Below, piece after piece: positions 1,086 to 64,000 of a stretch of DNA of 64,000 nt. The stretch is from positions 15,329-79,328 of IMG/VR virus record IMGVR_UViG_2974723840_000001; one strand, written 5' to 3'. This DNA is from Exceevirus Xc38. Lineage: Duplodnaviria; Heunggongvirae; Uroviricota; Caudoviricetes; Schitoviridae. Under the pieces are notes generated by a model. It saw nothing but the letters and a program-made list of their open reading frames with translations. It searched no databases and was not told the origin of the DNA. The number at the start of each line of letters is the position of its first letter. Within the stretch, counting starts at the first letter, position 1. The position numbers and the translations under genes were made by a program.

Positions 1086-4000
1086 ATGGCAGGCTATAAA
1101 TCATTACAAGTTGCTGATGCCTTGAACCGAGTAACCCAACAGTTAACACCTCAAGTAACAACAGGTACGTTGGCTAACTCTGTTTATGGCCGCAACACTA
1201 ATGCTCCAGATGCTACTGCTCAAACCATTCAAGACTTAGGCCAAGCACAGAATTACTATAATAGTATCTATAGTAAGACTGGTTCTGATTATGCTCAGGA
1301 CGCAGCTGTAGCATTAGGTAAAGGTATTGTGGCTGTTCCTCAAGCAGCTGCAGGTATCGTTGATCTAGCTGATGCAGGTGTACAAGCGCTTACTGGACAA
1401 GAAGTCCAAGGTGGTCGCTTCACTAAGTTATTGGATGATTCAGGCGTACGCTTCAAAGAGACTCAAGACATTCTATCTGGATTGTATTCAGATGGTACTC
1501 AACGTCAGCTTCAAGGCTTAGCAGCTTTACCTGGAATGAGTACAGAACAGTCATTAGGACAGAACCTTAGCTCTCTTGGTTCAACCTTTGGTTATGTGTT
1601 GGATAACCCATCATTAGCTGTTAACACTATTATCGAATCATTACCTCAGATTGCTGCAGGTGGTGTAGTAGGTCGTGGTGCTGCTGCTCTAGGTGCTAGA
1701 TCTGCATCTGGTGCTATTGGTGAAGGTGTCACTATGGCAGGTAGTGCTCAAGCTAATATGGACAGAAACGCAGAAGGTTATACTACTGGCAACCAAGCAT
1801 TAGGTGCTGCTGCTATTGGTGTACTTGGTGGAGCTGTAGGTTTAGCAGGTGCTCGTTTTGCAGGTCATCAAGGTGCTCAAGATATTAACAACCTTGCTGC
1901 AGGTATCTCTGCTCAGACAGCTAACAAAGGATTCAGATCTCTTGGTGTAGGTACTGCAACAGAAGCTGCAGAAGAAGCTGCTCAGTCATCTCTAGAGAAC
2001 GTAATCACTAACATCTCATCTGGTAAAGATGCTATTCAAGGTTTAAACCAAGATTTAGTATTAGGCACTCTTGCAGGTGCTGGTATGGGTGGTGTTGTTA
2101 ACGCTCGTAGTTCTGTAGCAGGTGCTGCACTAGATGCTGTACAACGTGCTGTAGAGAAGCAAGCTGAACGCATTAAACAAGCTCAACCGGAACGTAGTGA
2201 TACACCTACTGAAGAGTTAGCCAATACTCAATCTACTGCTTATAACCCTACTGCTGCTATCGTACGAGAAGCTAAATCAATTACTTCAGAATCTACCCCT
2301 GAAGAGATTGCTGCTGCTAAGCAACGTACTGATGAAGTATTAAACCAAGCAGAAGAAAGCTTAGCTAACCTACAAGAAATGAAAGTAGAGTTGGAAGCTG
2401 AACCTGTAGTTCTTCAAAACATTCAAGGTGCTCAAGCTGCTATTGAACGCTTTACTGCATCTGGCGAAGTAGAGAAAGCTCAACGTGCTCAAGCTATCCT
2501 TGAACAAGTACTTCAACCCCGTCTTGAAAAGATTCAACAAATTAAAGAAGTAGCATCATTAGATACTATTGATGGTGTGCTTGCTGAACGCCAAGCTAAG
2601 GTAGATGAAGCTCGTGATATGCACTCTAAGTACTCTGGTTTATTAAACCAAGTAACAGAGAATCAGACTCCTTCTGCTCAAGTGTTTGGTGCTCCACAAA
2701 GCTTTACTGCTGCACAGATTGAATCTGTAATTGCTGATCCTAATACTCCTGAATTAGATAAGCCTGTACTTCGTGCATTGGCTGATGCTGTTATTGCACA
2801 GAATGCTGTTAAAGATATTGATGCAGTAAACCAACAAGTAGTAGGTAAGAAGTTTGATCCTAACTATCGTAGTACTCCTCAATATATGGAACAGTTTGCT
2901 AAAGCTATTCAGTCTGGTTCTGTTCCTGCACAGGTGAACTTACTCCGTGAGATTAAGTCATTTGAACAATCACATGTACAGAAAGCTGAGTTGGTTGCTC
3001 AAGCATTAGAAGCTGCACAGACTCAAGGTATTCGTAGTCAGATCATTCGTACTGCTCAAGGCCAATGGACATTCAACCAAGGTGAATTACTTAAAGGTGA
3101 TGAAGCTAAACAGAATGGTGCTATTACAGTACATCCTACTCCTCGTGGTATTGCTGCAATGGTTAAAACCAATGAGTACATGCAAGCAGAAGCTCAAGCT
3201 ATTACAGCTACTCGTAATGCTATGGAGCAAATGCAGAGTGCTACTGGACAGACTCTTCCACAACAGGTACAACCAGAACAACCATTGTCATTTGATGATG
3301 CAATGGATTCTTATAACCTAGATGCGAGAGCCAACTATGACTTCCAACCTGAGCGCAGAATTGAAGATCCACGCACAAATACAGCACCTGTTAGCACTGA
3401 TGGAATTGGATCAACAGAAGCGGCAGTTCCTACAAGAACACAACCTACCGCAAGAACCGAGTCTGGTAGTGATACCACCCAAGTTCAAACCAATAACACT
3501 GGAGCAGCTAATCCGGTAGCGGAGGCTGAACGTGTAGCAAGTCGTAGCGTAAGCGAAGACGCAGCTACGGAAGTTCAGACAAGCGTAGATGAAGCAACCA
3601 AAGCTACTAATGAGGAACAAGTAGATGAAGTGGTACAACCTGAAGTTAAGACAGAAGCTGAACCTGAAGCTGTTAGCTCTGCTGAAAAAGCTGAAAAGAA
3701 TCCTGAGCGTACTGCAGAACGTAAGAAAGAGCCAAAGCAACGGAACCTTGTTATTGATGGTTTCAATAAACGTGATACCGTTCTTAATCGTAATCCTGAC
3801 TTTGCTTCTCGCTTTCTTAGCCGCTCAAGCAATATTGCAGCTGTAGAATCTATCGTAGGTGAAGAGCTTACTGATAAGCAGAAAACTGCTGTAAATGACT
3901 TCTCTAAGTTTGCTGCTTACTTTGATAGTAAGTTAGATGGTTTAATTGGAGATAAGCAACTTGAGTATCGCTTCCAGGACTTTAACCAATTCTTATTAGA

Positions 4001-7000
4001 AGACGGTAAGTTACCTGAGAATGTTAAGACTGCTGTATCTGCTGCCATGTATTCATGGTTAGCGGAGAATGGCTCTAAGACTCTTAACAATGAAAAAGAT
4101 GTTGCAAAGCTGCTACTGCTTAATAACGTAGAAACTGTACCTACCTCTGTGTTTAATGACTTTACTGCTGTAGGTGGTCATCAACAATTAATCATAGCAT
4201 CGTTAGGTCAAAAAGCTATGCAAGCACTTGGCCTAAAAGTAGTATCTGACGTAGACCCTGCACGCAAGACAAAACTTGAATCAGGTCTAGGCGCACTTGC
4301 GATGGTTTCCCTAGTTAACGCGGGTTATCTAGAAAGACATACAATTAAGGTAGTTGACTTTCTAAAAGCGCAGCGAATGTCAAATACTGAACTCAGTGAT
4401 AAAGAGCAGTCTTCTCTAAATAAAGCTATTCTAAAAGCAGGTAATAAAGAAATGTCTTTCTTACGCCCTGCTGTTGTTGACAGTGCAGGTACTCCAGCAA
4501 CTCGTGTCACTAAAGTAATTGACTCTGCTAAAGAAACTAAAGGTATTATCCAGAAGATGTTTGGTGTACAGCGTGACATTAAACTACCTTCACTTGAGCC
4601 TGTAACAACTACTCCTAATACGTTTAACCGTATGGGTAGTCAATTACCTTCTTACACTAAAGAGATGTTAGAAGCTGCTCAGAAGAATGGATACAAGATG
4701 TCAGCTCCTGCTATGCAGTTCATTGACAACGTTAAGCGTGAAGATCTACGTGAGTTATTTGGTTACGTAAATCCTAATGCTGATGGTTCATTTGATGGTA
4801 TGCACAAGAAGTTCTGGGAAGGCCAATTAGCTGCTAACCAAGCAGTAGAACGTGCTATCGATATCATTGCAGAACAACGTGTTAACTTAGGTGATGATTC
4901 TAAAGAGTTCTTCTTTGAACATACTTCATGGACTAACACTCGTTCTGGCTATGATGCTGCATTCAACTTACAAGCTAACAAGATGCACCGTGCTGTAGCA
5001 GGTATGTCAGCTCATGTAGTTGAAGTAGGTTTTGAGCCTGTTATGAGAGACGGACAAACCACTAAGTTTGGTGAGTTCTTAATGGCAGTAGCTATGAGTG
5101 CTGAAGGTGTATCTGATGCTCTAGGTATTCAAACTGTAGATAAGATGTCTGCTGAATCTTTTCTTCCTAAGTTCCAAGAATACCTAGCACGCGACTACGT
5201 ACAAGAAGGTATTGAAGCTATGGCTTCTATCCTTGAAGGTCAAGGCGACAAATCTGATATGGCTAAAGTTAAGTCTTTAGTTAAAGAGTTTGATATGGGC
5301 GCTATGTCTGTACGTGCATTACAAGCATTAGCACAGATGCATATTGCCCAACGTGATGGACAACGTACGTTTACTTCTGACATTGGTTTTGAATCTGATG
5401 GTGTTACTAACGGCCCAGTAATTACTAACGTAGTTTTAAACACAGCTGATGCTGACATGTTAGAAGCTGGTGGTGTATTTACTGACGCTAGTAAAACTAA
5501 CGTACCTACCAACAAAGAGTTAGGCACCAAAGATATCTATGAGCAACTTGGTGAAGTAATTAAGACTGCATGGGTTAAGTATAAAGCTAACGCTAAATCA
5601 TACGCCTTAGCTTCTGCAAAAGGACTAGATAGTATCTACTCTGCCTTTGGTGAACGTAAAGGTGCTAAACCAATCGTAACTACCTCTACCTATGGGGCAG
5701 GGATCTTATCAATCAAACGTGCGAACGCACGCGAGGTTTTAGATGCTTTTTACAGAGGTCTAGAGAAAGCAGGTAAAAACAATGATATGAGTGCAGCACA
5801 AAATCTTATTGATGCTGTAAACCAAACCATTAAGTTCAGTAACTATGAGCAAGGTTTACGTACTCCATTAGCACAAGTTAAAGGTAATTTATTAGAGTTA
5901 ATGCTTACTCCTGAACAAGAATCTGCATTGTTCTATGCTGCTGACAAGCAACATGGTGAAGCTATTAAGAACACTCTTGATACTGCTATGGCAGACTTCA
6001 ACACAGTACGCGATAACTTAACCAAGCAAGCAGTAAGTGGTTTTGCTGTATATGACTTGATTCGTAATGAAGCAATTAATGAAGCGTTGAAAGACACTAC
6101 TGATGTAATTGTTGATAGTAAAGGTAATCGCCAAGAAGGTCTTACTTCTGATCAGATGAAGAAAGTGCTCAAGTCTATTGAACGCTATACCCCTTCTGTT
6201 GTGTCAGGTATGGGTAATATGTCTACCAATAAGAAGCAGTCTTCTATCCCACTGATGAAGCAAAACACAGTTTGGGACGATACAGCTATGGGAGATCAAC
6301 AGCATGTATTTAAAGGTATGTGGCAAGGAGTAAATAAAAGCAAGTTTACTATACGTTCATCCATTAAGCGTGATGCTGTACAAAACCCTGGTGTATCTGG
6401 CCTAGTACTTATCATTCAGTCTATTGATGCAATGATTACTCATACTACTATCGGTAAGATTCCTTCACAGAACTATCACGATGCTGACGCATCTGCTGTA
6501 GGTAAAGGCAAGGAAATGGCACGTATACAGAATGAAGCTTTTGTTGATGGTGTTATGAATACTCATGTAAACCGTGAGTTTGTACGTGCATTGCTTAATC
6601 CATTGTCTATTGCTTTGGATAACCCCGCATTTGCTAAGGCCAATAAAGCTGCTCTACAAGAAGCATCTACTGACTTGGTTAAGTCTGTTAAAGATGCGTA
6701 TGCTCGTGATGACGCTAAGTTAGTTAATATGCTTACCTGGAAGAACGTTAACCAATACGGTACACAAGGTGGTCATTTTGTAATGACTAACGCTAAGCGT
6801 AAGCAGATTGTAGATGCACGTGATCAACTTAAGAAAGACTTGGCTAAGGATTTAGCTCTAGCTACTAAGATTGTTGATGCTGTATCTGATAAAGCTAAGC
6901 CTACAACTATCGAAGGTAAGTTAATCGCTGATGGTACTATGAAGGGTTCTGAGCTTGTTCCTATGCTACAAGCTGAGCTTAAACAGTTCCAAGGTAAGTC

Positions 7001-10000
7001 TGGTGATACAGGTAAGTTCTCTCAGTTCTATGACAGCATGCTTGATCTTATTACTAAGCAATTACCTAGCAACCTAGAAGTGAACTACTTCAATGAAGTA
7101 GATGCTCCATCTAATGTTGTTGGTTTAGAGGAAGCTGTTAAGAACAATAACCCTGCTTGGTACACAACTGGCAAGAATGGTAACCCACAGATTAATATCT
7201 TACGTGGTGATAAGCCTATTCGCGCACAGGTTCTCGTACATGAGCTAGTTCATGCTATTACAGTAGAATCTATTGCCCAAGTACGTAAAGAGCCTATAGC
7301 GCACGCTAAGGCTGCAGAATCGCTATCTAAACTAGATGCTTTGTATGAAGACATAAAAGCTAAGGTTAAAGCTGATCCTAACGCTACTGACTTGATGAAG
7401 TACGCTACTCAGAACGTAGAAGAGTTTATTGCTACTGGTTTCTCATACCCTGAGTTTGTTAACTACTTAGATAGTCAATTAGCTCCTAAAGCTGCTCGTG
7501 GTAAGAATCGTATCGTTACTGCATTACGTGCATTCGTAGACTCTATTATGGGTGTATTAGAAAGCTTTACTGGTCGTAAGTATTCATCTAAAGATGCAAC
7601 TGCACTAGAAGCATTGATTTTGGATACTACTGAATTCTTAGGTCGTGCTCCTGTACAGACTACTGGTACTCAAGCAACTATCTTTGGTGCTCCAGAACAA
7701 GCTCGTAGCAAAGTAGCTACGTTTACTTCTCGTCAAGTATTTGATGCATTGGACTCTAACTTAGATCCTAAGTTTAAGCTTCACTTGCAATCAATGATGA
7801 CTCATGTGTCTGACACTATTTATGGTGGTTTGAATGATCAACTAACAAGTAACCCTGATGGTACATGGTCACCTGAACGTGCATGGGAAGAGTACTTAGA
7901 GAAAGGAAGTTTAGATACTACTGAGTCTTCTACTACTGCAGGTTTCCGTATGACTGAACAAGAGACTTTCGCTGTTGAGTCTTTATATGCTGCTCTTGTA
8001 GCCGGGTTGAAAGATAAGTCTATGTCTCAAGTTTATGCTGAGCTTAACAAGTCATTTAATGCTGCAGCTAAAAAGCTTAAACCAGAAAACTTCTATGAAG
8101 GTGATTGGGCTACTGCTTCTCGTGAAGATAAGCGTGATGCTCAAGACATGTATGACTTCATCTTTAAGTACGGCCCTGAGAACAAAGAACCATTAGCTCG
8201 CTTTACTGCTATGGCTATTGGCTCTGAACAGTTCAATAAGTTACTTGGCTTCTCTGCTAAAGACGAAGCTTCTGGTACTACTGATACTTTTGAAAAGTTA
8301 GTTGAGCATACTAATACTGCTCTTGATTATGTAGGTGGTTTGATGACTAACTCATCCGCTAACCAACAGATTAAGAATCGTGTTGCTTTACTTGCTAAAG
8401 AATTAGCTCGTATTGATGCCAAGACTCGTGAGCAATCTATCAGTAAGGTTGAACAACAGTTAGAGAAGATCACTGATTTTACAGATGGTTTATCTGACAA
8501 GTTACGTGACCAAGTAGTTAAATTAGCTAACCATGACAAGATTGCTAACTCTCGTTTCACTAGTGTTCGTTTAGCTTCTAACGTTACTCGCTTATCTGCT
8601 CGTGGTGATCTATGGACTACTCTTGATGTAGTTAAAGATCTTCATAACTTCCATAGCCCTAATGAGCGCTTAGGCATCATTGGTGAGATTGTGAATGAAG
8701 CAGGTAATAACGATGCTACTAAGAACAGTGTTGAAAAGCTTATGCGTATTACTAAGCTTAATAACCAGATGAAAGAGAACATTCGTGATACCACTACTAA
8801 GAACGTTATGTCTACGTTTGAAGAGAATGGTCAGTACTTAACTAAAGATGATAAGACTGCAATCACTACTATGCTACGTGCTGATGTACAGTCATTGACT
8901 GGTAACTACAGTACTAAAGAGATCGCTGATCTTTACATGAATGAATCATTCTTGAATAAAGAAATTGCTGCTCTTGAGAAGCAAGTAAATGATTGGACTA
9001 TGCTTAACCGTGCTAAGCAGTTAGGTAAGTACATGATTACAGGTTTGGGTTCTCCTGGTCTTGCTAAGAATGCTCAGCTTATTGTCTCTGGTTTCAGTGG
9101 TGAAGTTGTTGATATTCGTGATAAGCGTGTAGATCTTATTGATCGTGTAGCTACTCTCTACGCTATTCGTTATACAGACTCTAAGACTAAAGGCAGACTT
9201 GCAGCTGTAATGAAACGTGAGCTTAAGAACAAGACTAACGGTATTGATACGTCTATCAAGTTCCATAAGGAATTAGCTGACAATGCTAAGAAAGTTTTGT
9301 TTGCTGACAACATTACATCTGTAATGAAAGGCTATGTACCAGAGGTTACTAACCCTAACAAGGACGTACGTATTGCTCATAATGAAGCAGAGACTAAGTT
9401 GCTTAAAGAACAGTTCTATACTGAAGTTAAAACTTTAGGTAAGGATAAGTCAGACCCGACTAAGTCTACTGCTCGTTTGTTCTATACAGAAGAAGCTAAC
9501 TTACAGCGTTTGGTTTCTGGTGCTATTGAGATTGTATCTACTAACCGTAAAGGTACAGCAGTGTCTATGGATTCTAAGGAGTTCAACAGAGCATTGGCAG
9601 CAGCTAAGCAAGTTCCTACTTCACCTAGCTATGACCCAATGGCAGACAAAGAAATCTATATGATTCCTTCGTACGACACCAAGGGTAATGTAACTGGTTT
9701 CAACTATGAAATGTCTGCACATAACCGTGACACTTTACTTGAACGTAATAACGACTTTGCTGAGTTACTAGGTTCTTATGCAGCTACTAACTTTAACAAG
9801 GTTACAGTTCCTAACCAGAATGATGCAGTTATTGAAGCAGCTTATCAGGACTACAAAGATAACTTTGCTGATAACCCACGTGCATACGTAACAGTAGGCC
9901 CTTCATCTAATGATGTAGGTTTACGTGAAGTATGGGCAATGCTTCCTGAGTCTAGCCGTAAGAAAGCTATTGCTACCTTTGGCCCGGATGGAATGGTAGT

Positions 10001-11057
10001 TCGTAACGATGTATTGCTTACTATGTTTGGATACCGTAAGTACTCAGCTAACCAATCTTTTGACAAGATGGAAGATGCTAAGTCTATGTTTGAAAAACTG
10101 TACACAGGTACTATGACTGAGATCTTTGGTTCTAAAGCTAAAGTTCGTGGTGTTCAGATAGAACGTAGTTGGCAAGAGTCTGTACGCTTGATGAAAGATA
10201 TTATTGTTATTCGTAACGTTAAGACTTTGGTTTCTAACTTAATGTCTAACGCTATGTTGTTATCTGCTCACGGTATTAGTCCTTCTGATATTGTTAAAGA
10301 TACAATGATGTCTATTCGTGCAGGTATGCAGTACCGTAAGGATATGGCTCGCTTAATGTCTTTACGTCAAAGACAAAGAGCTGGTGTAGGTGACTTCAAT
10401 GCTCAAGAGCAAGAAGCACTTAAGTTGGAAGATTCATTATCTCGTAACCCATTAGCAGGTTTTATTGAGGAAGGTATGATGCCTACAATCGTAGAAGATG
10501 TAGATCCATCTACTGACCATTACTCATATAAATCTAAGATGCAACAACGTATTGATGATCTTACTGAGAACGTACCTGCGTCTGTTAAGACTGCAGCTAA
10601 GTGGGCATTAGTATCTCCAGATACCCCGCTTTATAAGTTCTTGAACAACGCTACACAGATGTCAGACTTTAGTTCTAAGTATGTGATGTACAAGTACTAC
10701 ACTACTAAGGCTAAGGAAAAGCTAAGCCATGATGAAGCATTACAGATTGCTTCTGATAACTTTGTTAACTATGACGTACCAACAGCTAAAGGCTTACAGT
10801 ACTTAAACGATATGGGTATCGTAATGTTTACGAAGTATAACCTTCGTATTCAGAAAGCTTTATTCCAGTTACTTAAGAAGCGTCCTGCTACTGCATTAGC
10901 TCAAGCTTTACTGGTTCACAGTTTCACTAACCTTGAAGCAGGTATTGATCCTATCGTTTGGAATCAGATTGGTAACCCACTCCGTAGTGGTGCTATGGGA
11001 TTACCTTCTGCTCTAGATGAGCCATTACCTATCAAGATGATGACTAGCGTCTTCTGA
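1086..11057 (+). CDS. Giant virion-encapsidated RNA polymerase (N4 vRNAP family), 3323 aa, with a single-subunit T7-like RNAP core in its central part.
   Basis: Motif B of T7-like RNAPs (RxxxKx7YG) is present as RKGAKPIVTTSTYGAG. A specificity-loop/motif-A-like segment FESDGVTNGPVITNVV is present. A candidate motif C (NYHDADAS) is present. The 3323-aa size is close to N4 gp50 (3500 aa). The gene sits beside the virion protein genes. Confidence 0.88.
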   Translation: MAGYKSLQVADALNRVTQQLTPQVTTGTLANSVYGRNTNAPDATAQTIQDLGQAQNYYNSIYSKTGSDYAQDAAVALGKGIVAVPQAAAGIVDLADAGVQALTGQEVQGGRFTKLLDDSGVRFKETQDILSGLYSDGTQRQLQGLAALPGMSTEQSLGQNLSSLGSTFGYVLDNPSLAVNTIIESLPQIAAGGVVGRGAAALGARSASGAIGEGVTMAGSAQANMDRNAEGYTTGNQALGAAAIGVLGGAVGLAGARFAGHQGAQDINNLAAGISAQTANKGFRSLGVGTATEAAEEAAQSSLENVITNISSGKDAIQGLNQDLVLGTLAGAGMGGVVNARSSVAGAALDAVQRAVEKQAERIKQAQPERSDTPTEELANTQSTAYNPTAAIVREAKSITSESTPEEIAAAKQRTDEVLNQAEESLANLQEMKVELEAEPVVLQNIQGAQAAIERFTASGEVEKAQRAQAILEQVLQPRLEKIQQIKEVASLDTIDGVLAERQAKVDEARDMHSKYSGLLNQVTENQTPSAQVFGAPQSFTAAQIESVIADPNTPELDKPVLRALADAVIAQNAVKDIDAVNQQVVGKKFDPNYRSTPQYMEQFAKAIQSGSVPAQVNLLREIKSFEQSHVQKAELVAQALEAAQTQGIRSQIIRTAQGQWTFNQGELLKGDEAKQNGAITVHPTPRGIAAMVKTNEYMQAEAQAITATRNAMEQMQSATGQTLPQQVQPEQPLSFDDAMDSYNLDARANYDFQPERRIEDPRTNTAPVSTDGIGSTEAAVPTRTQPTARTESGSDTTQVQTNNTGAANPVAEAERVASRSVSEDAATEVQTSVDEATKATNEEQVDEVVQPEVKTEAEPEAVSSAEKAEKNPERTAERKKEPKQRNLVIDGFNKRDTVLNRNPDFASRFLSRSSNIAAVESIVGEELTDKQKTAVNDFSKFAAYFDSKLDGLIGDKQLEYRFQDFNQFLLEDGKLPENVKTAVSAAMYSWLAENGSKTLNNEKDVAKLLLLNNVETVPTSVFNDFTAVGGHQQLIIASLGQKAMQALGLKVVSDVDPARKTKLESGLGALAMVSLVNAGYLERHTIKVVDFLKAQRMSNTELSDKEQSSLNKAILKAGNKEMSFLRPAVVDSAGTPATRVTKVIDSAKETKGIIQKMFGVQRDIKLPSLEPVTTTPNTFNRMGSQLPSYTKEMLEAAQKNGYKMSAPAMQFIDNVKREDLRELFGYVNPNADGSFDGMHKKFWEGQLAANQAVERAIDIIAEQRVNLGDDSKEFFFEHTSWTNTRSGYDAAFNLQANKMHRAVAGMSAHVVEVGFEPVMRDGQTTKFGEFLMAVAMSAEGVSDALGIQTVDKMSAESFLPKFQEYLARDYVQEGIEAMASILEGQGDKSDMAKVKSLVKEFDMGAMSVRALQALAQMHIAQRDGQRTFTSDIGFESDGVTNGPVITNVVLNTADADMLEAGGVFTDASKTNVPTNKELGTKDIYEQLGEVIKTAWVKYKANAKSYALASAKGLDSIYSAFGERKGAKPIVTTSTYGAGILSIKRANAREVLDAFYRGLEKAGKNNDMSAAQNLIDAVNQTIKFSNYEQGLRTPLAQVKGNLLELMLTPEQESALFYAADKQHGEAIKNTLDTAMADFNTVRDNLTKQAVSGFAVYDLIRNEAINEALKDTTDVIVDSKGNRQEGLTSDQMKKVLKSIERYTPSVVSGMGNMSTNKKQSSIPLMKQNTVWDDTAMGDQQHVFKGMWQGVNKSKFTIRSSIKRDAVQNPGVSGLVLIIQSIDAMITHTTIGKIPSQNYHDADASAVGKGKEMARIQNEAFVDGVMNTHVNREFVRALLNPLSIALDNPAFAKANKAALQEASTDLVKSVKDAYARDDAKLVNMLTWKNVNQYGTQGGHFVMTNAKRKQIVDARDQLKKDLAKDLALATKIVDAVSDKAKPTTIEGKLIADGTMKGSELVPMLQAELKQFQGKSGDTGKFSQFYDSMLDLITKQLPSNLEVNYFNEVDAPSNVVGLEEAVKNNNPAWYTTGKNGNPQINILRGDKPIRAQVLVHELVHAITVESIAQVRKEPIAHAKAAESLSKLDALYEDIKAKVKADPNATDLMKYATQNVEEFIATGFSYPEFVNYLDSQLAPKAARGKNRIVTALRAFVDSIMGVLESFTGRKYSSKDATALEALILDTTEFLGRAPVQTTGTQATIFGAPEQARSKVATFTSRQVFDALDSNLDPKFKLHLQSMMTHVSDTIYGGLNDQLTSNPDGTWSPERAWEEYLEKGSLDTTESSTTAGFRMTEQETFAVESLYAALVAGLKDKSMSQVYAELNKSFNAAAKKLKPENFYEGDWATASREDKRDAQDMYDFIFKYGPENKEPLARFTAMAIGSEQFNKLLGFSAKDEASGTTDTFEKLVEHTNTALDYVGGLMTNSSANQQIKNRVALLAKELARIDAKTREQSISKVEQQLEKITDFTDGLSDKLRDQVVKLANHDKIANSRFTSVRLASNVTRLSARGDLWTTLDVVKDLHNFHSPNERLGIIGEIVNEAGNNDATKNSVEKLMRITKLNNQMKENIRDTTTKNVMSTFEENGQYLTKDDKTAITTMLRADVQSLTGNYSTKEIADLYMNESFLNKEIAALEKQVNDWTMLNRAKQLGKYMITGLGSPGLAKNAQLIVSGFSGEVVDIRDKRVDLIDRVATLYAIRYTDSKTKGRLAAVMKRELKNKTNGIDTSIKFHKELADNAKKVLFADNITSVMKGYVPEVTNPNKDVRIAHNEAETKLLKEQFYTEVKTLGKDKSDPTKSTARLFYTEEANLQRLVSGAIEIVSTNRKGTAVSMDSKEFNRALAAAKQVPTSPSYDPMADKEIYMIPSYDTKGNVTGFNYEMSAHNRDTLLERNNDFAELLGSYAATNFNKVTVPNQNDAVIEAAYQDYKDNFADNPRAYVTVGPSSNDVGLREVWAMLPESSRKKAIATFGPDGMVVRNDVLLTMFGYRKYSANQSFDKMEDAKSMFEKLYTGTMTEIFGSKAKVRGVQIERSWQESVRLMKDIIVIRNVKTLVSNLMSNAMLLSAHGISPSDIVKDTMMSIRAGMQYRKDMARLMSLRQRQRAGVGDFNAQEQEALKLEDSLSRNPLAGFIEEGMMPTIVEDVDPSTDHYSYKSKMQQRIDDLTENVPASVKTAAKWALVSPDTPLYKFLNNATQMSDFSSKYVMYKYYTTKAKEKLSHDEALQIASDNFVNYDVPTAKGLQYLNDMGIVMFTKYNLRIQKALFQLLKKRPATALAQALLVHSFTNLEAGIDPIVWNQIGNPLRSGAMGLPSALDEPLPIKMMTSVF

Positions 11058-15479: not shown

Positions 15480-15529
15480 AATGGTTAAGAGATTTCTCTC
15501 TTATTTGCGTAAGAGCGCACGGAGTGCGC

Positions 15530-56372: not shown

Positions 56373-57196
56373 TCAGCATATCGCATAATTACTATTCCGA
56401 ATAAGATCAGCTAGGTTGTTTGATTTCTTGATGTATTTAACAGGTGACTTAGTGATCTGACCTACGATGAATTGTAGGATGTCAGATTCAGCAAGCTCTG
56501 CCATGATCTCTTTGTACCAGTAACGCACAGTGTCACAATGGTTTGGATGGGCACCAAATGAGTCGTGTACAGTAATTACTGGTGATGAACCAAGTTCTAA
56601 CATCTTACGTAAGGTAGCTTCTAACTTGATTAGTAAGTCAGTAGGAACCTTAGCAGCGTTATCTTTGGTAATAAGATCAATGATAGATACATCAAGCATC
56701 TTAGAAGCGTTGTAGATATTGAGCATGTTCTCAAGCTCTTCATCAACTAATGTAGGTAGGTAAGGTTTTCCGTGCTCACGTAACGTGATCTCGTAAACGA
56801 TACCGCTATATGCTTCAGCTACTTTGTTAGGATCGTAAGCAGCACGGCGAATAACACTACGTAATAGATATCCATCAATAGAGTGAATGGTATTTGCTAC
56901 ATTAGCTAATCCCTTTTCAGTTCCTTGGTTTATATCCACGTATGTAGTGAACGTAGCATGATTTAACTCATCTACTTCTACACGTACTTCTTTCTTCTCA
57001 AGCACTTTAATATTTACATGGAAGTTATCAGGCATCACCCAGTTGTGACTGAGAGCACCTGCTTGCCATGTATCTAGTAATGCACTCATTAGCTCGAATG
57101 CTGCTGGAGCAATAGCGAATGCTGCTTGATAGAATGTAGCTAGTAGTTCACCTTCACCAAATACTTCTTTAGGTACTAAGGTAGAACCATAACCAG
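56373..57196 (-). CDS. N4-like RNA polymerase II large subunit, exon 2 (T7-like RNAP C-terminal palm).
   Basis: T7 motif C VITVHDSFGAHPN is present. The upstream in-frame extension HAGYGSTLVPKEVFGEGEL aligns to T7 AYGSKEFGF (the end of motif B). There is no ATG at its 5' end, consistent with it being a 3' exon. Confidence 0.7.
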
Positions 57197-58023
57197 CATG
57201 GTGTTCTTGTAAGTTCGTTAAGCTTACAACGGAAATCCTATGTCTCTCGACATTGGCTCCTGCTATATATTTCTATATAGATCAGACTATATCTTCATCC
57301 TCATAAGAGGAGTTCTGCGCTTCCGCTCACTTGAGCGTACTCCTAGATAGGATAGTCGTTACACGTTCTGTTCAACTACACGCTGACACATAGATATAAA
57401 TTGATCCATAGTCAGTTCACCTTTAGCTCTATTAATTGCCCAAGCAACCCATTGTACGTTACCTTTCACATAACCAAGTTCAGGTACGATCTTGTCTAGT
57501 GATAGGCACTCTAATGAGCCTACTTCAACTTTTAATACAGTTTTAGCAATAGCACATAAACCATTTTGTGACTTGTACAGTTCATACAAGTAATCCTTGT
57601 CTAAATCACATTCAGGTAAACCTGATTTTTTGGTTCGTGTTTTTGCATCAGTGAGTCTTGCACCAATTGCTGAGTATAGTAATCTATCCTCTTTAGGAAT
57701 CTTAGTTAGCGCACCAGAACCCCTATAATTAGGGTTCTTCTTACGCCACTCTCTAGCTTTTTCAGCTAAACATTCCTTACATTGGTAAACCTTATGTTCT
57801 TTGTAGGCATTCTCATTAGATGATTTGCCAAACTGATCAATAGGTTTCTCAACATTACACTTGGTGCATATTTGTGTGATATTCATAACTTCAAACTCTT
57901 AAGTAGGTTATGAATAGTTTAACAGCTTCGCACGGGATTGTCTTCGTCTTTCACGGTCAGAGGTTCCCCGTTTTCACAGAATTGCATATATCTAGTTACC
58001 TAGATAGTGACCCCTTTAGGTTA
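57197..58023 (-). ncRNA. Group I self-splicing intron (about 827 nt) with an internal HNH homing-endonuclease ORF, interrupting the RNAP II large-subunit gene in motif B.
   Basis: P1 pairs exon UGACCU| with the intron IGS GGGUCA (intron nt 11-16), giving a U.G wobble at the splice site. P/Q-like (P4) elements are present (GAAAACGGGGAAC and AAUCCCGUGCG). P7 is present (GACUAU at about 57351-57361, AUAGUC at about 57283-57293). The S element AAGAUAUAGUC is present. The intron ends in G at 57197. Splicing restores RKDVKRAVMT-SGYGS with the T7-like K(+8)Y spacing. Confidence 0.7.
57359..57886 (-). CDS. Intron-encoded homing endonuclease (HNH / His-Me finger, Endo VII-like).
   Basis: N-terminal CTKCNVEK...CKEC zinc ribbon is present. 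A C-terminal LSLDKIVPELGYVKGNVQWVAWAINRAKG HNH-like beta-beta-alpha finger is present. It lies wholly inside the intron. Confidence 0.55.
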   Translation of the reverse strand: MNITQICTKCNVEKPIDQFGKSSNENAYKEHKVYQCKECLAEKAREWRKKNPNYRGSGALTKIPKEDRLLYSAIGARLTDAKTRTKKSGLPECDLDKDYLYELYKSQNGLCAIAKTVLKVEVGSLECLSLDKIVPELGYVKGNVQWVAWAINRAKGELTMDQFISMCQRVVEQNV

Positions 58024-58447
58024 AGGTCATTACAGCTCGCTTTACATCCTTACGTGGTACTTCAATCTGATTGAAACCCTTAAGCTTAAGGATCTCATTC
58101 ATCTTCTTAGTAACGTCTGTATATGCATCTGCACGTTTCTCTGTTACGAGTCCTGTAGCATCTGCACCTTTCACACAACCTGTAATAGCTGACATGATCT
58201 GAATACCAGAACACGTAGCATCAAGTTGTACGATATGACCTGTTGGTTTGCCTTCAACTACGTTACGTAGCTCATGAACTGCTTTGATGAATAATGGCTT
58301 ATCCTCTGCGGTATCAGCTAACTGCTCTAATTGAGCATAGTTATCTTTAACCCATTGGATTCGTTGCTCGAATAACCACTTATCTTTACCGTAGTGGTTA
58401 GCGATATCGATGCAAAGGTAGTCTAGAGCTGAGTATGGTTTGAACAT
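58024..58447 (-). CDS. N4-like RNA polymerase II large subunit, exon 1.
   Basis: Own RBS GGAGAAACACC. LDATCSGIQIMSAITG matches T7 DGSCSGIQHFSAML. It ends RKDVKRAVMTLT*, i.e. in the middle of motif B (RxxxKx7YG). Confidence 0.7.
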
Positions 58448-59204: not shown

Positions 59205-60132
59205 CTATGCTCTTTTTGTAGCTAGTACCTTGTGGAGTAATGTGGTGTCCACAGAAGTAGATACGACCACGCTTATCCACTTTAGTAGTGATGTACATCT
59301 TATTGCCTGACTCAACGATATGTTTATAGAAGGTTTGAGACTGATCCAGATGCTTCTGCCAGTTCTTCTTCTGCTGTGACACAGCCTTCATAAGCTCTAT
59401 CTCTGTAAGCTCATGAGCGTTCTCTACAGTGTCTAAATCGTGAGTAGGTAGTTCAGGTGTGTTTTCTAATTGCCATTCGTTTAACGACAATCTGTAGCGA
59501 TTCATGATGTTTAATACATCTAATGCTATAGGATCGTTATGGTGATTCATTGAACCACCTAGAATGAGAGACTCACCTTTCAGTGTTAAGTAACCAGAAC
59601 TACGATTGTTATGTAGTTTCTTTGGTTTAGTGATTAATGGTGGTAGGTAACACGCACGTTCAACGTATGCTTGTAACTCATCAGTAAGATAGAAATTACT
59701 CTTTACGTAGATAGAACTATTGATGTGATACTTCTCTAAGTTATAGAAGTCAGTCTCACACAAGATAGCAATAATCTCTGCCATTGCTTGTATGCCTACA
59801 CGCGTATCATCAAAGCCCATAGATGGAGCTAATTGGCTTGCTAGGTTATTTAAAGTAGTTTCACTACTAAGACTAGCAATACGAATGAATACATCCTCTA
59901 CAAGCTCTGTGAGATCCATCTGAGAGATGTGATCTTTACGTGTCTGTTTAGATGCATAACTAGATGGTGATTGACACCATGCTTCTATTAGAGCTACACC
60001 ACGTTTGATGCAAGCATCAACCTCTGGGATAGTATCCATATAAGCTTTAACTGCACTCTTGATTCCCTTACGAGAATACATTTGTTCAGTTTGAGTTTGT
60101 AATTCAATAAGTTCTTCGCGTGACATCGGCAT
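59152..60132 (-). CDS. N4-like RNA polymerase II small (N-terminal) subunit.
   Basis: VDKRGRIYFCGHHITPQGTSYKKSIVEL matches T7 RNAP DWRGRVYAVSMFNPQGND. Its C-terminus aligns contiguously with the N-terminus of exon 1 of the large subunit. Confidence 0.7.
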   Translation of the reverse strand: MPMSREELIELQTQTEQMYSRKGIKSAVKAYMDTIPEVDACIKRGVALIEAWCQSPSSYASKQTRKDHISQMDLTELVEDVFIRIASLSSETTLNNLASQLAPSMGFDDTRVGIQAMAEIIAILCETDFYNLEKYHINSSIYVKSNFYLTDELQAYVERACYLPPLITKPKKLHNNRSSGYLTLKGESLILGGSMNHHNDPIALDVLNIMNRYRLSLNEWQLENTPELPTHDLDTVENAHELTEIELMKAVSQQKKNWQKHLDQSQTFYKHIVESGNKMYITTKVDKRGRIYFCGHHITPQGTSYKKSIVELYDKETIDVPSGYFG

Positions 60133-60194
60133 GATTAAGTCTCTTGGTTAATTAAATAATAAAAATGCCTAACCCGAAGGCTAGGCAATTTACA

Positions 60195-60506
60195 TTAAAG
60201 TTCGATAGCGAACTCAATTGGTGCATCTTTATCACGAGCTTGCGTGATTTCAACAATTATTAACTCTTTCAATTTCTCTGGTGTTAAAGCACCTGATTTA
60301 AGAGCTTCAATTAATTTCACATCTAATGCATTTTCAGCATATAAACGTAAAGTTAATTCTGGTGATAGTTTCATACGTGTGCCATCAGCTAATGGTACGT
60401 ATAAGTTTACAAAGCCAATGGTAGTACGTTTATCTTTAACACCTGCAGCAGCAGTATTAGAAGTAGTATTAACACCAGCAGTTTTAGTTGGATCAACAAA
60501 AGCCAT
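60195..60506 (-). CDS. Hypothetical early protein, 103 aa.
   Basis: ORF only. Confidence 0.4.
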   Translation of the reverse strand: MAFVDPTKTAGVNTTSNTAAAGVKDKRTTIGFVNLYVPLADGTRMKLSPELTLRLYAENALDVKLIEALKSGALTPEKLKELIIVEITQARDKDAPIEFAIEL

Positions 60507-60618
60507 GATTGTATTCCTTGAAGAAGATTAACGGCGACAATGCCACTTAAAAGCGTAGCGTTCTTTTAAAGCTACCGTGATGGTGGTGCTACCGCGAAGG
60601 GCTTAAACACGGTATTAA

Positions 60619-61194
60619 CTACCGTGTCACCCCTCTATATTTGTCATTAAGTTTAAATAAGTGTTTAACCTCATCATGTAGATGCAGATTACGCTTACCT
60701 TGTGGTTGTAGTTTAATATCTGTATAACCACAATAACGGAAATATACTTGTGCAACAAAGAGTTGCTTCATTAGAGTATTAATATAAACACTATCATTGG
60801 TACTATGTTGAGGTGTGAATCTCATTAATCCCATGAACACATTTATATTATCGTAGACGATATCTTTATTAACTTTGTCTAGATGATCTATTTTAGCAGC
60901 TAGTCTAATTAGATTATCTGGAGAGATATCAGCATTATAATCAGCTACTCTATTTAGTTTATTTAGCATGTCTTGAAGAGAATAAAAGCCTGTTCCTTTA
61001 GGGAATCCATGAGCAGCCATTCGATTATCTATAACATGGATTAGATTATCTTTAGTAATAGACATAATAACCTCTGTGTATGGGTATTTAGAGAAGAAAG
61101 TATGTTTAGCGAACTTATCAAATAGCTCATGTATATTGGTTTTAGATGTTCCTCTAGGAGCAAATATGTGTGGTCTAGGCATGACAATAGCCAT
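60619..61194 (-). CDS. Hypothetical early protein, 191 aa.
   Basis: ORF only. Confidence 0.4.
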   Translation of the reverse strand: MAIVMPRPHIFAPRGTSKTNIHELFDKFAKHTFFSKYPYTEVIMSITKDNLIHVIDNRMAAHGFPKGTGFYSLQDMLNKLNRVADYNADISPDNLIRLAAKIDHLDKVNKDIVYDNINVFMGLMRFTPQHSTNDSVYINTLMKQLFVAQVYFRYCGYTDIKLQPQGKRNLHLHDEVKHLFKLNDKYRGVTR

Positions 61195-61266
61195 TAAACA
61201 CCTCCAATTTAGAATTAGAAAAGCCCTATAAATAGGGCCTTAGTCTTTAGATGTGATTAGCGAAAA

Positions 61267-61545
61267 TCAGCTATTTTGACTATCGTTAGCTATTAGGTTT
61301 GCTACTTCTTTGCATGCATTGTTTAAGTGGTATTCAAACTCATGTTCAATCACTTTTTCAGGTATCTGAAGGTTGATCATGAATTGAATTGCAGCTCTGA
61401 AGTGCTTTAGTACAAGCTTGGGATGTTGGTAGAAAACAGGGAATTGATCTTGAGATATGAGTGCTGCTTGTTCTGGATATGTACCCATAAATTCAGCAAT
61501 GTACTCAAGATCAGACATGTCTTCAGTCTCTTTAATCTCGAACAT
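61267..61545 (-). CDS. Hypothetical early protein, 92 aa.
   Basis: ORF only. Confidence 0.4.
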   Translation of the reverse strand: MFEIKETEDMSDLEYIAEFMGTYPEQAALISQDQFPVFYQHPKLVLKHFRAAIQFMINLQIPEKVIEHEFEYHLNNACKEVANLIANDSQNS

Positions 61546-61631
61546 TTGATTGTTTTCCTAGTAGATATGCAGTGATTACCATGCCTATAACGATACAAAT
61601 GATTGCAACAATTCCATTGATTGATAGTGTG

Positions 61632-61790
61632 ATCATAGTAGTGTTACTCCGATAATTAACAGACAACAGCAAAGGGATAGAAATATCCAAGGCTTTGCTT
61701 TAGTTGGGTTTTTAGATAGTGATATACCTAAGAAGGCGAAGAACTGAAGTGCTAGTAATACCATTAAAGCTTTGGTTTGGTAATCACTCA
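61632..61790 (-). CDS. Small membrane protein (52 aa, MSDYQTKALMVLLALQFFAFLGISLSKNPTKAKPWIFLSLCCCLLIIGVTLL). Below the track cutoff. A second 34-aa TM ORF follows with an ATGA overlap.
   Basis: Manual translation of the minus strand. Hydrophobic. Coordinates approximate. Confidence 0.3.
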
Positions 61791-61794
61791 TGGG

Positions 61795-62307
61795 TTATTC
61801 CTTGATGGGTAAAGGGAAGTCAGGTTCAGTCATTAGATCAGACTTAATAGTCTTCTCTAATTCTTTAATACGTTCAGTTTGTTTAGGTGTGATAAGAGGT
61901 TTGTCCTTACGAGGTCTACCACGCTTACGCTTATGCGGTTCAGGTTCAAACGTAGGCATCTTTTCAGTTATCTGATAGATGCGTTTATCAGAGTTATATC
62001 CTGTTGAATCAAGGATATATACTTCATCTGGGTTATCACTGAATGTAGCAGCAAAGCGAGCACTATTAGCTATTGGTTTACAGCTTAGTACTTGTACCCA
62101 ACCATTGATAGTTAGTACGCTGCGTCCTGTAAAGTCCATTAGTTCATCACGTGAGAACTTAGATGTATTACATGCTTTCTTTACTGCTTCCATACCACTA
62201 GTGTTATAGATACCAAGTAATAATAAGAACTCTTGTTCATCGTAAGCCATTTGGTCAATAGCGTTTAAGTGTGTTACTACTTCAATTGATGATACGTTGA
62301 TTAACAT
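61795..62307 (-). CDS. Hypothetical early protein with an AT-hook-like motif (KRKRGRPRKDKP).
   Basis: A GRP AT-hook core lies in a basic tract. Confidence 0.4.
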   Translation of the reverse strand: MLINVSSIEVVTHLNAIDQMAYDEQEFLLLLGIYNTSGMEAVKKACNTSKFSRDELMDFTGRSVLTINGWVQVLSCKPIANSARFAATFSDNPDEVYILDSTGYNSDKRIYQITEKMPTFEPEPHKRKRGRPRKDKPLITPKQTERIKELEKTIKSDLMTEPDFPLPIKE

Positions 62308-62495
62308 AGGTAATACTCCAATAGTTGTGCTGAAAGCATTGATATGAATAGGATCAGTAGTGCTGTAATGAATCCGTATGTGAATAGGAGATCATCATTC
62401 TTATTCTTATATGCAGTGTACATACAGTTAATAGAGATGATGATCATGAGTAGTACTAGTGGAGTGAATATCCATAGTCCTAGTAGAGTGTTCAT
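62301..62495 (-). CDS. Small membrane protein, 64 aa.
   Basis: Two hydrophobic helices. Confidence 0.35.
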   Translation of the reverse strand: MNTLLGLWIFTPLVLLMIIISINCMYTAYKNKNDDLLFTYGFITALLILFISMLSAQLLEYYLC

Positions 62496-62619
62496 ATTGA
62501 ATAACTCATGTAAATACGATTAAGTTCAGTGAAGTATGCAATACGCTTTCTATGTGCATAGAAGTACTGCATAACATGAGAGTTATGTAGATTACGTTTC
62601 ATACAGGTATTTAACTCTA

Positions 62620-62970
62620 TTAAGCAAAGATATGATCATATACTTGATGTGGTTGATTACACTGTTCAGGTAGTAAGTGATTGTGATCAACAGCACCATA
62701 CATACATGTAAGTATTGTCTTGTATACAAGTACATGATGATTGTGAATGTTGTTCTGTTCTTGTCCTTCTGGATAGAAATGAGGATTATCGATGAAGTAT
62801 GTGATTACTTCATCAAGTGTACCCTCATCAAGACAACAGTCTAATGCTTTGTTAAGTAGAGGTCTTTCAGACTCACGAATACATTGGATAATTGATTCAC
62901 GAGTGTATGCATTGTTAGCAATAGCATAGTTGATAACAGCATTAAGTTCAGTGTTAGTACGAGTAGTCAT
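62620..62970 (-). CDS. Hypothetical early protein, 116 aa (His/Cys-rich); first gene downstream of the early control region.
   Basis: ORF only. Confidence 0.4.
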   Translation of the reverse strand: MTTRTNTELNAVINYAIANNAYTRESIIQCIRESERPLLNKALDCCLDEGTLDEVITYFIDNPHFYPEGQEQNNIHNHHVLVYKTILTCMYGAVDHNHLLPEQCNQPHQVYDHIFA

Positions 62971-63100
62971 AGTGTTTAGTTCCGTTTAGGTTTATCAAAG
63001 ATAATAGGTAAAGTGTAGGTAAGCAGACTTGTCTGCACTAACAGATGTAAATACTCATGTTTAGTACTTATCTCTCTTACTCCCTATATAAGCGTAGCTA

Positions 63101-63152
63101 TTCATAACCTATGGTTAGATGATTCATAACTAAAAGTTTGATCATTCATAAC
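63101..63152. repeat. Three direct repeats (consensus GAT[GC]ATTCATAACTA) spaced exactly 22 bp apart; iteron-like.
   Basis: TTCATAAC occurs at about 63101, 63123 and 63145 with conserved flanks. A long AT-rich tract at 63226-63265 is adjacent. Confidence 0.5.
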
Positions 63153-63279
63153 TATAAGTAATTAGACAGTTCAGAATATACTGGTACACTGCGCTTAAGG
63201 TGCCAAGCAAAGTGTAAACCTATAATATAAGTAATATATAAGTATTATATATACATACATACTACTCATCATTAAAACT

Positions 63280-63296
63280 GTACGGAGTACAGTGAA
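63280..63296. promoter_or_regulatory. Perfect 7-bp hairpin with a 3-nt purine loop (ACTGTAC-GGA-GTACAGT) on the template (plus) strand, upstream of the early genes; candidate vRNAP hairpin promoter.
   Basis: N4 vRNAP promoters are template-strand hairpins with 5-7 bp stems and 3-nt purine-rich loops. This one sits about 310 nt upstream of the first early ORF. Confidence 0.3.
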
Positions 63297-63455
63297 TTTA
63301 GGTAATTAGTTATAAACTAAATGACCTATGGTTTATTAGTATAAAGTGATATCGCTATTCACAAAATTTACTGTTTTTCCAGATAGTTTGCCACTGTCAA
63401 GCGCGCCTTACTGTCACATGTGTATTGTGTAATGTGTAATATGTGTAAAACAAAA

Positions 63456-63480
63456 TGGATACACGCTAAGAGCGCATATC
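63456..63480. promoter_or_regulatory. Second hairpin with a 3-nt AAG loop (GGATAcACGCU-AAG-AGCGcaUAUCC); candidate hairpin promoter or regulatory element.
   Basis: Inverted repeat read from the sequence. Same early control region. Confidence 0.25.
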
Positions 63481-63594
63481 CATAACGATTAAGATAATGA
63501 GTAGTATAAATACACCAGCCCACATAAGTTCATAGATGTGATTCATCTCACAACTCCTATTGATTAAGAAGAGTGAGATAACTCACTCTATTGA

Positions 63595-63903
63595 TTAGTC
63601 AAATGACATAACACCATCTGCATTAACAGACACACCTAACTCTTTCATCTTATCTGCTAACTCTTTCTTAGCTATCACTAGCTTAAGAGTATCAGCAGTA
63701 TCAGAGATCTCTGCTAGATTAGATGCCTTTGATTCAGCTATGTATGTGATGCGTTCAACAGCACCAATGCCTTGCTCTGCAGCTTGGAAGGTACGATCTA
63801 TCATCTTAAGACCACGCATAGCTGTACCAGTTAATGCACCTACTAATGTTTGAGGTTGTTGTGCTTGAGACATGGAAATACTCCTGATTGGTTGATTGAA
63901 CAT
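63595..63903 (-). CDS. Hypothetical early protein, 102 aa.
   Basis: ORF only. It is preceded, about 20 nt upstream, by the repeated motif TATAAGCGTAGC. Confidence 0.4.
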   Translation of the reverse strand: MFNQPIRSISMSQAQQPQTLVGALTGTAMRGLKMIDRTFQAAEQGIGAVERITYIAESKASNLAEISDTADTLKLVIAKKELADKMKELGVSVNADGVMSFD

Positions 63904-64000
63904 TCCATCTATAAGCGTAGCGATTACCTCTTGAGTAAGAATCCTTTTTCTAACGAGACATAGGGGGGAGGGTACTAAGATAGATCGAAGGGGGAGTAGA

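Follow-up and report, generated by a model that had tools for sequence, protein, structure and literature searches.

Candidate hairpin promoters, an intrinsic terminator and phased repeats at the inner end of the terminal repeat of Acinetobacter phage XC38

Layout of the early genome end

The early control region considered here, with its candidate hairpin promoters for leftward transcription, lies near the right end of a 64,000-nucleotide stretch of phage DNA (the window), which is 100% identical to Acinetobacter phage VB_ApiP_XC38 (NC_055823.1; Schitoviridae, Exceevirus; 79,328 bp). Window coordinates equal those of NC_055823.1 minus 15,328, and window position 64000 is the right end of the record. 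Positions 63057-64000 are identical to positions 1-944 of NC_055823.1 and form the right copy of a 944-bp direct terminal repeat (DTR), the inner half of which contains most of the region. The initial annotation had missed this location, while its assignment of the DNA to an N4-like phage holds. A related phage, nACB1, has a DTR of 973 bp by PhageTerm (PMC10057805), and in the alignment its inner boundary coincides with XC38 63057. All genes from gp97 through those of the phage polymerase RNAPII lie on the minus strand, so the plus strand is their template, as had been stated initially. The leftward gene gp96 begins with an ATG at 62970, and the gene for vRNAP, the injected RNA polymerase, is at 1086-11057 in XC38. 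The features that we discuss are the following, in leftward order.

63057-64000, no strand: direct terminal repeat, right copy, 944 bp, identical to NC_055823.1 1-944
63905-63921, plus strand: P1-like site CCATCTATAAGCGTAGC, 82 nt from the genome end and upstream of gp97
63466-63546, minus strand: unannotated 26-aa membrane-type open reading frame (ORF) MNHIYELMWAGVFILLIILIVMDMRS with an AGGAG ribosome-binding site
63446-63483 (stem 63455-63483), minus strand: intrinsic terminator t1 of the operon of gp97 and the small ORF, with the U-run UUUUGUUUU
63380-63448, no strand: block ATAGTTTGCC..GCGCGCCTTACTGTC (63401-63415) with four TGTGTA(A) heptads (63419-63447), conserved across genera
63272-63293, plus strand: template-strand hairpin ACTGTAC-GGA-GTACAGT (63277-63293) with the 5' flank TAAAA, conserved
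63221-63260, no strand: AT-rich tract, 4 G/C in 40 nt, the lowest-GC interval of 40, 60 or 100 nt in the 64 kb
63100-63152, no strand: direct repeats of ATTCATAAC, three copies, starting at 63100, 63122 and 63144 (22-nt period), specific to XC38
63082-63098, plus strand: P2-like candidate early promoter, CC-N8-GCGTAGC, upstream of gp96 and kept in every relative
63023-63036, no strand: palindrome GCAGACTTGTCTGC, in the predicted gp96 5' untranslated region, outside the DTR
60543-60559, plus strand: P3-like site CCACTTAAAAGCGTAGC, upstream of gp90 and of the RNAPII small-subunit gene gp89

The six features that had been described initially are all present, with coordinates shifted by 1-5 nt and some errors of wording.

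CC-N8-GCGTAGC sites and the early promoters of N4

Judged by their sequences, the best counterparts of the N4 early promoters P1-P3 are the sites of the form CC-N8-GCGTAGC. Three are found in the window against 0.07 expected, a number reached by none of 100 shuffles, and all three are on the template strand in intergenic gaps. The P2-like site, whose mini-hairpin heptamer GCGTAGC is at 63092-63098, precedes the gp96 ATG by 125 nt on the template strand. More than 20 further template-strand sites with GCGTAGC and a CC at the same offset are present in eight related genomes (At2, nACB1 and six metagenomic contigs), and phage Presley has the versions CC-N8-GCGGAGC and CC-N8-GCGTGAGC. A search of the N4 template strand for GCGNAGC returned exactly three sites, upstream of gp1, gp2 and gp15, which read CCATAAGTTGCGAAGC, CCAAAAGAAGCGGAGC and CCAAAAGCTGCGGAGC and give the consensus CC-N7-GCGRAGC (GCGAAGC or GCGGAGC). 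In N4 P1-P3, the GC-rich heptamer is centered at -11 and contains a sheared pair between -10G and -12A, and the N4 vRNAP contacts -8G, -9C, -10G and the purine at -11 (PMC4496689). The heptamer GCGNAGC is an extremely stable DNA mini-hairpin, and its N = T form melts at 70 C (PMC13037366). The P2-like GCGTAGC has each of the residues that define this heptamer (-8G, -9C, -10G, -12A, -13G and -14C). The XC38 sites resemble P1-P3 in lying on the template strand, in the GCGNAGC heptamer with its G-N-A triloop and sheared G.A pair, in a CC, the predicted start, at a distance of about 11-13 nt from the loop center, and in occupying three matching positions, namely the genome end before the first gene, the place after terminator t1, and the place before the RNAPII genes. 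Early promoters of phage LUZ7, as mapped by ONT-cappable-seq, have stems of at least 4 bp, a 3-nt loop and a G start 13-14 nt from the hairpin center (PMC9163698). The CC of the GCGTAGC-type sites, at 12-13 nt from the loop center and invariant in more than 20 of them, fits these LUZ7 starts. An alignment of the region to N4 P1-P3 had been proposed initially; the counterparts do exist, but at the CC-N8-GCGTAGC sites, which the initial annotation had missed.

Several observations weigh against this assignment. The loop center at -11, a purine in N4, is T in all sites of the XC38 group; the stem flanking the heptamer is 2-3 bp in XC38 and 2-5 bp in its relatives, compared with 5-7 bp in N4; and the CC is separated from the heptamer by eight nucleotides rather than the seven of N4. 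Nearest-neighbor DNA folding gave no significant stability for the GCGTAGC sites, in a model that does not include sheared G.A mini-hairpins. By BLASTP, XC38 gp97 has no significant similarity to N4 gp1, so the parallel with P1 is only positional. The promoter-contact residues of N4 vRNAP (W129, R119, D901 and R904) did not align with the XC38 vRNAP, in which only the C-terminal domain aligns confidently. Furthermore, what we observe at these sites is their sequence, conservation, statistics, strand and position, and it is from these that we infer recognition by the polymerase and the start sites.

Taken with these reservations, the XC38 promoters appear to belong to the known N4-type class of hairpin promoters, with minor variation. 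The early promoter most likely to drive gp96 is the CC-N8-GCGTAGC site at 63082-63098, from which leftward transcription is predicted to start at the CC at 63082/63083 and to run into gp96. Promoters for the host polymerase ahead of the leftward genes are unsupported, because a sigma-70 promoter scan of 60000-64000 found no minus-strand match in the region and sigma-70-like matches as a class are depleted there (4 against 18.7 +/- 4.0 in shuffles). The same interval has an excess of terminator-like sites (6 against 1.4). Beyond the P3-like site, gp90 is followed by a strong UUCG-loop terminator (60166-60187, minus strand) before the RNAPII small-subunit gene. Thus, gp90 has a promoter-like site and a terminator of its own, as is also the arrangement of N4 gp2 and of LUZ7 Drc; by BLASTP, XC38 gp90 has no significant similarity to N4 gp2, and the parallel is positional only.

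The terminator t1, the GGA hairpin and the heptad block

Two further hairpins with purine loops had been proposed initially as promoters of the N4 type, and our analysis separates them. The AAG hairpin, said to lie at about 63456-63480, is present at 63455-63483. On the plus strand it has only four inner base pairs, followed by two C/A mismatches, and does not form the template-strand stem of 5-7 bp of an N4-type promoter. In minus-strand RNA, the mismatches become two G.U pairs within a continuous 13-bp stem, which has a folding energy of -16.9 kcal/mol (z = -4.67), is matched by no shuffle, and is followed by a U-run. A stable stem-loop, a U-run directly after it and a position at the end of an operon are what characterizes rho-independent terminators, and all three are found at 63446-63483 on the minus strand. 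Terminator hairpins of unrelated sequence occupy the t1 position in At2, nACB1, Kc283 and metagenomic relatives, and N4 has a terminator after gp1. The full stem forms only in minus-strand RNA, and this apparent purine-loop hairpin is an intrinsic terminator of the minus strand and not a promoter.

The t1 stem contains the stop codon of the 26-aa ORF (63466-63546, minus strand). This ORF, with its AGGAG ribosome-binding site, lies inside what had been described as 620 nt of non-coding DNA, which is not entirely so. Its hydrophobic product (…I/V-I/V-D-M…) is conserved in At2, nACB1 and the relatives L024, L055, L056 and L057. Between gp97 and the small ORF is a further RNA hairpin, AGAGUGAG-UUAU-CUCACUCU (63572-63591, minus strand; -11.4 kcal/mol, z = -4.2), which is flanked by CTATTGATTA direct repeats and has a similar counterpart in At2 and nACB1.

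The GGA hairpin is a different case. Its perfect 7-bp stem and GGA loop are as initially described, although at 63277-63293 instead of 63280-63296. It is kept in all nine genomes of the XC38 group, a form of conservation that had been named as a check at the outset, with 6 bp of the stem conserved. The relatives were retrieved with a separate conserved block, GCGCRCCTTACTGTC, and not with the hairpin as the query for eight of the nine genomes, so the search was unbiased towards the GGA hairpin. The distance between the hairpin center and this block is 116-117 nt in eight genomes and 150 nt in At2. The string TAA.A.TGTACGGAGTACA is invariant across the nine. At the sixth pair, C:G is replaced by G:C in three genomes, a compensatory change, and the seventh pair is formed only in some. 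In common with N4 promoters, the GGA hairpin is on the template strand and has a stem within 5-7 bp, a G-purine-A loop, and a purine (A) at -8. Perfect C-GNA-G hairpins with stems of at least 6 bp are found eight times on the template strand in the window and once on the other strand; the middle promoters of LUZ7 are GC-rich hairpins with stems of at least 6 bp (PMC9163698), and it is the 8:1 bias of a class resembling these that suggests that the GGA hairpin, too, is of promoter type. In At2, L055 and L056, it is only 34-49 nt from the P2-like site, a spacing that recalls the two LUZ7 early promoters arranged in tandem 33 nt apart (PMC9163698). The GGA hairpin is therefore probably a second hairpin promoter in tandem with the P2-like one, as far as can be read from its sequence and conservation.

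Compared with N4 promoters, however, the GGA hairpin has an N4-like stem and loop without the GC-rich heptamer or the C start, and the initial proposal of an N4-type promoter stands as regards strand, stem, loop and conservation but not as regards these two elements. The differences count against a promoter: the GCGNAGC heptamer is absent, the core being ACGGAGT, and there is no C start nearby, positions 11-14 from the center being A/T in the nine genomes and position 12 always T. To these may be added that covariation is confined to a single pair, and that the core is a perfect palindrome for which a symmetric operator would equally predict a compensatory change. The last point belongs to another account of the hairpin, in which it would either end leftward transcripts as a second RNA terminator or, as double-stranded DNA, be the palindromic operator (TGTAC-N3-GTACA) of a dimeric protein, and which we consider rather unlikely though worth weighing. 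In XC38 and At2, the minus-strand form of the hairpin is indeed followed by UUUUAAU. However, this U-run is missing in nACB1, L022, L024 and L054, and the RNA hairpin is weak (-6.8 kcal/mol, z = -1.6), on which grounds the terminator has been ruled out. As for the operator, the GGA spacer and the TAARA flank are invariant, and the flank is found on one side only; such asymmetry fits a strand-specific element, and the 8:1 preference of the C-GNA-G hairpins for the template strand speaks against terminator and operator alike.

A more far-reaching possibility, to which we give little weight, is that TAARA and the C-GGA-G hairpin form a separate type of promoter hairpin or priming site, initiating with A, which a phage single-subunit RNA polymerase would use and which is present in both terminal repeats, and that together with the P2-like promoter it might couple the action of the polymerase to replication or to the maturation of the ends of the genome, with the GCGCRCCTTACTGTC/TGTGTAA block as an associated signal. 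Only 25 nt separate the predicted start of the P2-like promoter from 63057, where the repeat has its precise boundary. If true, this would be the hairpin-promoter counterpart of what T7 RNA polymerase does at origins and at concatemer junctions.

The TGTGTAA block itself is conserved beyond the XC38 group, in phages of the Cbunavirus type (Kc283, phiA41 and others) and in one further metagenomic lineage, always just past the first early terminator and inside the DTR region. The combination of GCGCRCCTTACTGTC with three to four TGTGTAA heptads is found, in non-coding DNA, across genera of the Schitoviridae, in L007 (1685-1735), L051, L018, L019 and L038 among others, and Presley has a partly similar element. 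A triple direct repeat had been annotated initially at about 63421-63448; the heptads are real, but they comprise four copies of TGTGTA at 63419-63447, three of which read TGTGTAA, and the longer unit TGTGTAAT occurs only twice. An Rfam scan of 62600-64000 on both strands returned only noise (E of 0.8 or above) and nothing for the heptad block, and a tRNA scan found none.

Apart from the GGA hairpin, seven GC-rich perfect C-GNA-G hairpins with stems of 6-7 bp are found on the template strand in the short gaps between leftward middle genes, with loop centers at 15522, 19319, 47378, 49058, 52161, 53828 and 55040. In six of them, the bases 12 and 14 nt away from the loop center are C, and AAAGCRC is common to three. 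Perfect hairpins of at least 6 bp with 3-nt loops number 53 in the window, against 20.8 +/- 4.5 in simulations. By analogy with LUZ7, the seven are candidate RNAPII middle promoters. XC38 would then have the same two hairpin classes as LUZ7, on the XC38 side as a prediction only, and the tandem early promoters of LUZ7 would find their parallel in the close spacing seen in At2, L055 and L056; the sequences of the two phages are, in contrast, unrelated.

The variable cassette and the organization of the region

Between the P2-like heptamer and the GGA hairpin lies an interval that alignment defines as a cassette of about 110-150 nt, containing the ATTCATAAC repeats and the AT-rich tract. The repeats are directly upstream of the P2-like heptamer and are the only phased triple of a 9-mer in the 64 kb, with none in 20 Markov simulations. 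The three copies and their exact 22-nt spacing agree with what had been annotated, but they start at 63100, 63122 and 63144, and the proposed consensus GAT(G/C)ATTCATAACTA fits only repeats 2 and 3 (63118-63132 and 63140-63154). Copy 1 reads GCTATTCATAACCTA, and its GC is part of the GCGTAGC heptamer, so that the supposed first iteron begins inside the P2-like promoter (...GCGTAGC-T-ATTCATAAC). The tract once given as 40 nt of A and T alone at 63226-63265 is AT-rich but has 6 G/C there and no pure A/T run longer than 11 nt; the GC minimum is at 63221-63260, within which an 11-nt unit, ATATAAGTAAT, is repeated in tandem 2.5 times. Minus-strand ORFs of 15 and 25 aa that cross the repeats and the tract have no ribosome-binding site and are not conserved. 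An inverted pair of the same 9-mer, TATTCATAAC...GTTATGAATA (57879-57916), lies across the start codon of gp86, an endonuclease gene.

Among the relatives, the cassette is present or missing as a whole. It is present in XC38, nACB1, L022, L054 and L057, and absent from L055 (the closest relative), At2 and L056, that is, from three of the eight relatives that span the interval. The ATTCATAAC iterons are found in no relative examined, contrary to the conservation that had been set as a check on them; in nACB1, L022, L054 and L057 their place is taken by a palindrome, TATCAGTAAAACTGATA, which is imperfect in nACB1. The repeats are thus real and lineage-specific and look like protein-binding sites, and the cassette that carries them appears to be dispensable among the relatives.

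What these repeats might do can be considered under two headings, of which the first is that of the replication origin to which the region had been likened initially. An initiator would bind the ATTCATAAC iterons, the AT-rich tract would unwind, and transcription from the GGA hairpin promoter would have an activating or priming role, as at the primary origin of T7. That origin consists of promoters for the phage RNA polymerase followed by an AT-rich region, and XC38 resembles it in having a conserved promoter-type element for a T7-like polymerase that faces the region's most AT-rich DNA. The repeats, which are two helical turns apart, stand up to statistical testing, nowhere in the 64 kb is GC lower than in the tract, and the arrangement of an iteron-type origin, with at least three phased repeats beside an AT-rich element, is present; GNA mini-hairpins are also found at sites of single-strand priming (PMC13037366). 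Nevertheless, the iterons occur in no relative, with the palindrome in their stead in four, and, unlike at the T7 origin, the tract and repeats are dispensable among relatives, the whole cassette being missing from L055, At2 and L056. No initiator gene was identified among the adjacent genes, in a family search of the neighbors that was uninformative, and, the DTR being present in two identical copies, one origin would be no more than about 270 bp from a physical end of the genome. The absence of the cassette from relatives that include the closest one argues against an essential origin, which we regard as improbable here.

The second, still tentative but a better candidate, is that the repeats are sites for a sequence-specific DNA-binding protein at the terminal-repeat boundary, either the small terminase (TerS, gp02) or a regulator of the abutting P2-like promoter. 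They are located 43-98 bp in from the terminus that is expected, on the N4 model, to be packaged first, much like cosB of lambda. With iteron-type origins and the R sites of lambda cosB, they share three direct repeats of 9-15 bp in helical phase, beside AT-rich DNA and near a genome end; they differ in having no recognized initiator gene beside them, in not being conserved, and in being absent from close relatives. The boundary at 63057 is precise and common to XC38 and nACB1, the first repeat abuts the promoter heptamer (63098/63100), and a different repeat or palindrome at the same place in relatives is typical of sites that co-evolve with their binding protein. On the other hand, three relatives have no such element, which is hard to square with an essential packaging site and weakens that version in particular. 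The packaging direction comes by N4 analogy only, and any binding protein is putative. A regulator site for the abutting promoter, or an accessory site, is possible.

Two elements near the DTR boundary carry little weight. The palindrome GCAGACTTGTCTGC is present as initially annotated, though it spans 63023-63036; with 49 palindromes of the 6+2+6 form in the window it is unremarkable, its fold stability is not significant (z about -0.7 to -0.9), and the relatives do not share it, so it probably has no significance. A T7 class-II pause motif, ATCTGTT (63040-63046, minus strand), just past the repeat boundary, was dropped, as it is not conserved in nACB1.

Some further observations concern the genome end and the RNAPII genes. 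At 63940-64000, a G-run is followed by AAGGGG(G)NGTAG at the terminus, an architecture common to XC38 and N4. The XC38 cut site falls inside a short inverted repeat, AGTAG-A|TAGAC-CTACT (window end with record positions 945-960), and the genome-end motif AAGAATCCTTTTTC is kept in At2 and Kc283 and almost kept in nACB1. The RNAPII large-subunit gene (56373-58447) is annotated as two pieces, gp85 and gp87, with the endonuclease gene gp86 between them and the HNH homing endonuclease gp84 after them, which suggests an intron or interruption by a homing endonuclease.

Overall, the reading that we favor, with a fair degree of confidence, is that the region combines the inner part of an N4-like DTR with the 5' leader of gp96, and contains the terminator t1, a mini-hairpin early promoter, the GGA hairpin in tandem with it, and a dispensable cassette. 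Read leftward, the first early operon, gp97 and the 26-aa membrane ORF, would close at t1, and the conserved TGTGTAA heptad block, common across genera, would follow. The C-GGA-G hairpin (6-7 bp, with TAARA on one side) would then most likely be extruded as a promoter for one of the phage single-subunit RNA polymerases, with initiation at the invariant T, 12 nt from the loop center, and in tandem with the next promoter. Beyond the cassette, with its AT-rich tract and three phased ATTCATAAC repeats of protein-binding type, CC-N8-GCGTAGC would drive gp96, GCGTAGC serving as the N4 GC-rich heptamer at -11 and the CC as the point of initiation.

Hairpin promoters for an injected RNA polymerase are a hallmark of the N4-like phages and have been mapped experimentally in few of them. 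The Acinetobacter schitoviruses appear to retain only the GCGNAGC core, with a pyrimidine at the loop center and a fixed CC start. CC-N8-GCGTAGC thus offers a simple rule for the annotation of early promoters in these phages, and the reduced GCGNAGC core hints at the minimal determinant of recognition by vRNAP.

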